A program made the position numbers and the translations under genes. Source: Podarcis bocagei (lineage: Eukaryota). From it: DNA of 64,000 nt. Below, piece by piece: positions 37,812-38,537 of this stretch (the stretch's first letter is position 1; each line of letters begins with the position of its first letter). Below the pieces are notes generated by a model. It ran no database searches. It saw only the letters and a program-made list of their open reading frames with translations, and was not told where the DNA came from. Where the stretch lies: the NCBI GenBank assembly GCA_964188305.1, contig OZ076890.1; one strand, 5' to 3'.

Positions 37812-38537
37812 GTTGTGAGCGGGAATTACATCCCGTGCTTGCAGGGGGTGTGGCTGCACCCCCTGTGACATGGAGTCCAGGGCCCGCGTCATGCCCCTAG
37901 CTGGCTGGGGGGCGTGCTTTGGCCGCATTTAAATAGCTGTGGGCCCACGAGCTGCTCCTGTTTGCTCCGGCTTCCTCAGATCTCCCGCCCACCCTCCCTC
38001 TAGGTCTTGCACTCAACATCTGACCTTGCTATGGACTCGGTTGGCCATCTGTTGAGGGGGCCTGGTAGGAATTTTTTCCCCTTGGCAGATTGGCATGGGC
38101 CACTTGGTTTTTCACCTGCCTCATAGCAAATGGTCACAACTTTGTAAGGTTTGGCGGTTAGGCATTGTAAAATGTGTTGTGTGTTGGAGGGGAGGTTGTG
38201 GCCATCACCTCCCCCTCTCCTTGAAGGGTATTTCGTTAAAGGAATCCAACGGCTGTGGTTCCTGTGGTGGCTAGGGCCATTGCACGACCCCCTGGTGACT
38301 CTAGGGGAAAGCTTCCAGTTGATTTGCATCAACAAGTTCCCCCTACATTCCCTTGCCTGACTCCCTGCAGAGCAGGCAGGAGTCAAGTATAGTCTATAGG
38401 ATCCAATGCCTAAGCCAATACCGCTCACATTCTGTAACCAATAAAGTTGTGGCCTTTTTTACCCCATTAACCTAAAATACTTGTGTCCATGTGTCTTATT
38501 TCATCACAAAGCAGGGAGCGGGGCCTCGACTCACAAC
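37812..38537 (+). mobile_element. Retroelement terminal-repeat remnant (Ngaro/DIRS-like or LTR), copy A
   Basis: Inverted termini GTTGTGAG / CTCACAAC; TATA-like TTTAAATA near 37928; AATAAAGTTGTGGCC at 38440; blocks shared with 27150-27840; no TSD seen. Confidence 0.6.

Follow-up and report, generated by a model that had tools for sequence, protein, structure and literature searches.

A candidate single-domain ENE-like fold in a non-coding interspersed repeat of Podarcis bocagei

Can a U-rich internal loop shared by two diverged repeats of the lizard Podarcis bocagei clamp the poly(A) tail of the RNA that carries it? The loop lies in a 64,000-nt stretch of contig OZ076890.1 (assembly GCA_964188305.1; hereafter the window), where an initial annotation had described it as an ENE-like stability module of a vertebrate retroelement. 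We consider, with a probability of roughly 0.55, that a ~760-nt non-coding interspersed repeat family has in this fold a single-domain stability element of the ENE type that clamps poly(A). ENE-like action is the leading explanation because the architecture is real and rare and has been retained by three copies; against it stand the lack of two-sided covariation within the fold and the prediction that one copy folds otherwise. The two full copies in the window, collinear with each other, are:

37787..38544, plus strand (the U-loop strand): repeat copy A, ~758 nt
27078..27835, minus strand: repeat copy B, ~758 nt

Blastn (E 2e-19) and nhmmer (E 1.9e-31) show them to be homologous, and they are 56% alike overall (472 of 842 aligned columns identical). 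No copies beyond these two were found within the 64-kb window. Two search patterns had 0 matches in bacterial and archaeal genome contigs, and a plasmid search had no match. The domain of interest occupies, in each of them:

38021..38136, plus strand: ENE-like domain of copy A, with an outer stem, a lower helix, a U-rich loop and a 2-bp plus 4-bp upper stem
27464..27583, minus strand: ENE-like domain of copy B, with a U-rich loop and a 5-bp plus 4-bp upper stem; this is its minimum-energy fold

The helices named by the initial annotation were found in copy A where it had placed them, and both U tracts are present in A and B. A 13-bp outer stem of copy A, in two parts (38021-25/38132-36 and 38026-33/38122-29), encloses a 6-bp lower helix (38064-69/38115-20), an internal loop of AA plus U6 facing U5 plus CA, a CC/GG closure (38078-79/38106-07) and 4 apical base pairs (38091-94/38099-102). 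Copy B has the same helices, with a lower helix of 7 bp (27536-30/27485-79) and a loop of AA plus U4 facing U4 plus G; the upper stem adjoining the loop measures 5 bp, versus 2 bp in A. The statement that B keeps every helix does not hold as it was put: 5 of the 29 aligned pairs are broken in one copy. With six and five U on the two loop sides in A and four and four in B, both copies have the at least four U per side expected of an ENE. The loop flanks also agree with this type of element in A, in B and in a third copy known through the predicted protein P0002 (see below), the lower helix of 6-7 bp ending in two G-C pairs and a C-G pair closing the loop from above. The apical TGGC/GCCA hairpin is less secure: its GCCA can also pair in a more distal register, which is the one chosen in the two-copy consensus structure, and P0002 is unable to form the apical one. 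No second U-rich loop, as in a double ENE, occurs in the stem of A or B, each of which has a single loop. At the sequence level there are nested helices, a two-sided loop of 4-6 U, C-G above it and two G-C pairs below, in three copies.

The pattern is uncommon. A descriptor of the ENE type (two-sided U loop, CC/GG above, G-C below), drawn up post hoc with the site already known, matched the window twice, at A and at B, in five of five settings; block shuffles contained a match in 0/100 cases at the strict setting and in 15/100 at the loosest. The two matches represent one evolutionary event because A and B are homologues. Identity between the copies reaches 88 of 121 columns (73%) in the fold region and 23 of 29 directly 3' of it, as against 51-52% in the flanks (131/250 upstream, 209/410 downstream); the best 116-column stretch among 20 shuffles had 59%. 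Within the fold, paired positions are identical more often than the others (45/50 versus 43/71; Fisher p 3.5e-4, post hoc). The earlier proposal had been made to depend on covariation and on conserved U tracts. The tracts are kept in all three copies, but the 29 aligned pairs, 21 unchanged, 3 with one-sided changes and 5 broken in one copy, include no two-sided change, a count that comes from two full sequences and, with two, has no covariation power. All four one-sided changes in shared helices (three in the fold, one in the GTTAAA hairpin described below) create a G.U pair when read on the U-loop strand, never an A.C, a bias expected about once in 16 by chance that we take as weak evidence on the strand.

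The third copy came from a protein search. The antisense open frame over A had two matches at E <= 0.001 among 1.84 billion proteins. One of them, P0001, is a cysteine-rich repeat protein that aligns to another part of the query and was dropped as a chance match. The other, P0002 (73 aa, 52% identical to the antisense frame), is, judging from its codons, a spurious antisense translation of another copy of the repeat: its codon alignment scores 176 to A and 130 to B, the maximum in 15 shuffles being 70, and 98 of its 120 fully determined bases equal A. Codons fix 11 of the 27 stem pairs as pairs, leave 16 open and make none impossible. The two tracts appear as 5 and 6 pyrimidines, of which 3 and 4 are fixed as T, the AA ahead of the 5' tract is also fixed, and the main stems are compatible, whereas the apical hairpin and the word ATTGG are lost. 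One lower-helix position has U.G in A, C-G in B and, in P0002, an ambiguous base against A; were this base U, the pair would be compensated. This evidence is partial, given the codon ambiguity and a match that was selected by its likeness to A. Protein searches with the open frames of the repeats gave nothing besides P0002 and the chance match P0001, and a coding reading of the repeats was rejected: neither the 140-aa frame of B nor the 152-aa antisense frame of A matches Pfam, and 1-nt indels separate the copies.

Apart from the fold, the carrier contains several internal features:

37928..37933, plus strand: TATA-like box TTTAAA in A, a consensus match only (TATAAA at 27680 in B)
38143..38148, plus strand: TGTAAG in A, directly 3' of the fold (also in B, at 27458)
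38230..38245, plus strand: second conserved hairpin in A, with a GTTAAA loop (27384-27369 in B)
38440..38445, plus strand: AATAAA in A, ~320 nt past the lower helix

In A the fold had been said to lie between a TATA-like box and AATAAA, and it does (37928 and 38440), a GT-rich stretch following AATAAA on its 3' side; B has no AATAAA. The longest downstream A-run is 4 nt in A and 5 nt in B. TGTAAG, also compatible with the codons of P0002, resembles the splice-donor consensus (38143 in A, 27458 in B). It forms part of a near-palindrome directly 3' of the fold (38133-38148 in A, 27467-27453 in B), CACAAC followed by TGTAAG, that resembles the far end of the element joined to its start; a junction mimic and a splice donor are both conceivable. 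The GTTAAA hairpin sits in a conserved block (38224-38248 in A, 27390-27366 in B) with a 15-nt exact match.

Rfam searches of the whole window and of both repeats had no match above noise at either site (best E = 1). We rejected a MALAT1-like locus (longest A-run 4 in A and 5 in B, 0 tRNA calls, no Rfam match), an H/ACA snoRNA with its ACA 3' of the stem (no upstream H box by inspection, no Rfam match) and an HDV-like or hammerhead ribozyme (helices nested, no Rfam match).

The repeat that carries the domain had been called the solo terminal repeat of a retroelement. Its ends do not bear this out:

37787..37810, plus strand: terminal hairpin of A, 10 bp with one G.U
27811..27835, minus strand: terminal hairpin of B, 9 bp with G.U at the same place; two of the nine pairs show two-sided changes relative to A
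37812..37819, plus strand: inner inverted repeat of A, 8 bp, 25 nt from the hairpin end (27808-27801 in B, imperfect)
38530..38537, plus strand: outer inverted repeat of A (27092-27085 in B), followed by a short conserved stretch to 38544 in A and 27078 in B

TG..CA with short inverted ends can be drawn inside the A and B units, giving them an LTR-like look. However, homology runs beyond TG (the shared hairpin) and beyond CA (a few shared bases), and no target-site duplication was found: 4-5 nt matches occur in 3 of 1316 boundary pairs in A and 7 of 2240 in B, and none of these matches has TG as well as CA. The terminal hairpin holds the only two-sided compensations that we saw, in a window where such hairpins number 28 on the plus and 19 on the minus strand. 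The 8-bp inverted repeat, perfect in A and imperfect in B, has a matching change at both ends in B, and its inner copy pairs with the far end in whole-element folds. Since the terminal hairpin is compensated and the inverted ends are asymmetric, the carriers are very probably not ordinary solo LTRs. They share with solo LTRs of the ERV/Ty3 type the TG..CA with short inverted ends, the TATA-like box followed (in A) by AATAAA and a GT-rich stretch, and the collinearity of two diverged copies over their whole length, and differ from them in the missing target-site duplication and in the conserved sequence outside TG and CA.

Helitron2 elements are described as having asymmetric short inverted repeats at their ends, one beside a terminal hairpin ~25 nt from the end, and as including members that carry a gene in the opposite orientation (PMC3627910). 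The end pattern is matched when the carrier is read on the strand opposite to the U-loop strand. It then resembles non-autonomous Helitron2/Helentron elements (HINE, DINE-1) in its asymmetric inverted repeats, compensatory end changes, lack of target-site duplication and T beside the hairpin end (PMC3627910), with T7 after the hairpin in A and one T in B. The terminal hairpin, folded as DNA on the Helitron-sense strand, has -6.3 and -6.5 kcal/mol with one mismatch there, as expected of the 3' hairpin, and the inverted repeats have the length (8-15 bp) and position (20-30 bp from the end, before the hairpin) seen in Helitron2. By contrast, there is no stable hairpin at the other end, where a 5' terminal hairpin using the inverted repeat would have just -1.3 and -0.1 kcal/mol, and no autonomous partner was seen. 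The repeats of mite HINEs are also longer, 12-15 bp versus the 8 bp, imperfect in B, found here (PMC4067079). We do not file the carrier as Helitron2 because of the missing 5' hairpin and these shorter repeats. A Helitron2/Helentron-like non-autonomous element running opposite to the transcript is our tentative choice of parent class, at somewhat short of an even chance. A tyrosine-recombinase-type or other retroelement terminal repeat is unlikely, some other class quite unlikely and an ordinary solo LTR most unlikely. Recombinase retroelements, too, leave solo repeats without a duplication. In Xenopus, the split direct repeats of Ngaro are reported as A+B of 236+152 bp (PMC9210276). Ngaro/DIRS elements have RT/YR ORFs enclosed by A1..B1-A2-B2 repeats or by a long ITR plus ICR; the inverted repeats here have just 8 bp, and no full-length element of this type was found in the window. 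A link with a nearby Ty3/Gypsy element was rejected, as the repeats have no similarity to it.

How strongly does predicted folding favour the ENE-like fold? The two-copy consensus structure is this fold (-26.7 versus -13.7 ± 3.1 kcal/mol; z -4.2, equalled in 0 of 300 column shuffles). The opposite-strand consensus is equally strong (z -4.27), and z <= -3 is reached by 6 of the 19 sense windows that cover the repeat, so that the fold region is not a unique structural peak. Single-sequence z values are -2.5 for A (for a rival fold) and -1.0 for B, with -2.9 and -3.0 on the opposite strand. Stems per tile (24 and 17 versus a mean of 17) were uninformative.

These results bear on the alternative that survives best, unlikely as we hold it to be, namely that the fold is real and serves as a domain of a structured single strand rather than as a poly(A) clamp, the U-rich loop being a pyrimidine mismatch region or a protein site. 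It might then act in RNA export, in packaging or in 3'-end control, or be a structure of the ssDNA intermediate of a rolling-circle or recombinase element. Whole repeats are indeed more structured than shuffles (20 each) on both strands (z -4.1 to -7.6), the two-sided compensations are confined to the terminal hairpin, the GTTAAA hairpin and TGTAAG are further conserved features flanking the fold, and the ends match Helitron2 in part. Against it, two-sided U tracts and a C-G closure are kept in three copies, and the G.U changes favour one strand. Moreover, when folding is limited to a 200-nt span, B alone is exceptional (z -7.6), the value of A (-2.5) being equalled by 5 of 19 control tiles.

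The two copies also fold differently. In copy B the open U-loop is the minimum-energy fold (P 0.35), and its lower helix has a pair probability of 0.39-0.87 in four of four contexts. For copy A, the best open-loop fold lies 6.7 kcal/mol above the minimum (P 1.2e-6), the lower helix does not exceed 0.053 in any of the four contexts, and the isolated core likewise folds into a structure other than the open loop; the folding models omit triplex energy. The fold originally drawn for A is therefore not its predicted one, as a rival helix is favoured:

38047..38090, plus strand: rival 13-bp helix of A (38047-59/38078-90), which excludes the upper stem of the U-loop

The pair probability of this helix is 0.94-0.96 in three of the four contexts and 0.03 in the fourth. 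It might act as a two-state switch that shuts the ENE in one context (e.g., the 5' end of a long RNA) and opens it in another, since the helix and the upper stem are mutually exclusive and its probability drops from ~0.95 to 0.03 in one of four contexts. We regard this as improbable: the rival helix was absent from every fold computed for B, the idea comes down to one copy, and the lower helix still has just 0.053 in the context where the rival helix melts.

Less probable still is conservation at the DNA level, with transcription-factor sites of a promoter or enhancer being conserved and the helices incidental. ATTGG occurs at the same place in A and B (38089 in A), presumably as a reversed CCAAT box, and what we take to be a kappaB-like site, GGAATTTTCC, spans the 5' U tract of B. 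Nevertheless, ATTGG is impossible in P0002, the six T of A break the kappaB spacing, and factor sites leave the nested complementarity over 116 nt unexplained. An accidental pattern without function, inherited by two homologous repeats, is least probable of all, since a single event caught by a post hoc descriptor that 15 of 100 shuffles also match at its loosest setting would not account for the 73% identity in the fold versus 51-52% in the flanks, or for retention in a third copy.

If the domain is a poly(A)-clamping ENE, Pol II would start at the TATA-like box and transcribe the U-loop strand, and the element RNA would be polyadenylated near its far end. By analogy with KSHV PAN and Evade, the tail may fold back into the loop to form four to five U.A-U triples and touch the lower G-C pairs through A-minor contacts; the docked tail would slow deadenylation of the intronless element RNA. 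The constraint would have acted on the spreading lineage rather than on insertions A and B; we place it there because B keeps the fold without a canonical poly(A) signal, whereas A keeps the signal and prefers the rival hairpin. By these measures neither insertion is a complete unit, B lacking AATAAA and A preferring the rival helix, so that the idea of each solo repeat as a stabilised ncRNA of ~500 nt fails for B and is doubtful for A. With a carrier moving as DNA, selection for RNA stability would need an extra step. A bolder and rather improbable version combines these traits in one reptile non-coding family, with rolling-circle-type ends and, on the opposite strand, a poly(A)-clamping ENE, along with a promoter of its own: a "DNA" transposon would make, or move through, a stabilised small RNA, and the rival helix would switch the clamp in the A subfamily. 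The combination of such ends, a promoter and an opposite-strand ENE was not found in the literature searched.

Among known systems, the ENE of KSHV PAN RNA is similar in its two-sided U-rich loop between short helices, with G-C pairs below and a position upstream of the poly(A) signal (here, in A). Four consecutive triples are reported to support a triplex, PAN using five U.A-U and three A-minor triples (PMC7583470). The repeat loop differs from that of PAN in two extra A on its 5' side and, in B, in having 4/4 U versus the five PAN triples (PMC7583470). The repeat domain, known here from sequence alone, has in addition an outer stem of 13 bp that bears a side arm. ENEs have been predicted in transposons of plants, fungi and a slime mould and in stickleback retroviruses (PMC7583470), and have been described inside LTRs and behind transposase genes (PMC13541005; PMC7583470; PMC12501189). 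The repeat shares an ENE-like loop in a mobile element with all of these (stickleback retroviruses, plant and fungal LTR and DNA transposons, Arabidopsis Evade), the stickleback ENEs being compared by description only. It differs from most plant transposon ENEs, which are double, in its single domain, and from transposon ENEs in a carrier without ORF or target-site duplication and with asymmetric ends. For anoles, MALAT1-like triple helices have been noted in dozens of transcripts (Zhang 2017, as cited in PMC10869381). The repeat resembles these loci and MALAT1/MEN-beta in its U-rich loop and its occurrence in lizards (PMC10869381); unlike MALAT1/MEN-beta, the carrier has no G/C-interrupted long loop, no A-run above 5, no tRNA-like element (0 tRNA calls) and no Rfam match.

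The claim of novelty in squamates must be narrowed accordingly. The literature searched contained no report of a reptile transposon with an ENE, though primary ENE lists may include reptile elements or homologues of this repeat. As a kind, mobile-element ENEs are not new to vertebrates, having already been predicted in stickleback retroviruses (PMC7583470), and the anole MALAT1-like helices (PMC10869381) also precede this one. The repeat domain is built like a single-domain ENE, and is probably a new case of one in a reptile mobile repeat. Mobile-element ENEs are known mostly from plants and fungi, stickleback retroviruses being the sole vertebrate case that we found cited, and a functional ENE here would add amniote mobile elements to those protected by a poly(A) clamp. 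With its many copies, the family would offer natural variants from which to learn the rules of short, four-triple ENEs with extra A in the loop, and insertions near gene ends could give host RNAs a stability element. With such odd ends, the carrier also merits classification for its own sake.

The window contains several other repeats. A young chromodomain Ty3/Gypsy LTR retrotransposon (41953-47701, minus strand) has LTRs identical at 678 of 684 positions and a 1309-aa gag-pol frame; its SH3/chromo part lies in a different frame, running into the LTR, and the element is unrelated to the ENE-like repeats. A MITE-like family of ~250 nt has at least six copies in both orientations (3215, 6281, 7060, 14108, 16514 and 37297), one of them ~230 nt to the left of repeat copy A. 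A SINE pair (12898-13250 and 40939-41170) is presumably of the Sauria type. A 144-nt inverted repeat (18976-19119) whose arms are 94% complementary is probably a MITE; its mir-5408 match, at 48 bits, falls short of the gathering score of 90. A 167-aa frame (35544-36047, minus strand) without a Pfam match reads like what we assume to be the end of an L2-type LINE protein. Finally, a GC-rich repeat pair in opposite orientation (33952-34099 and 54730-55183) is 92-93% alike over arms of 60-67 nt.
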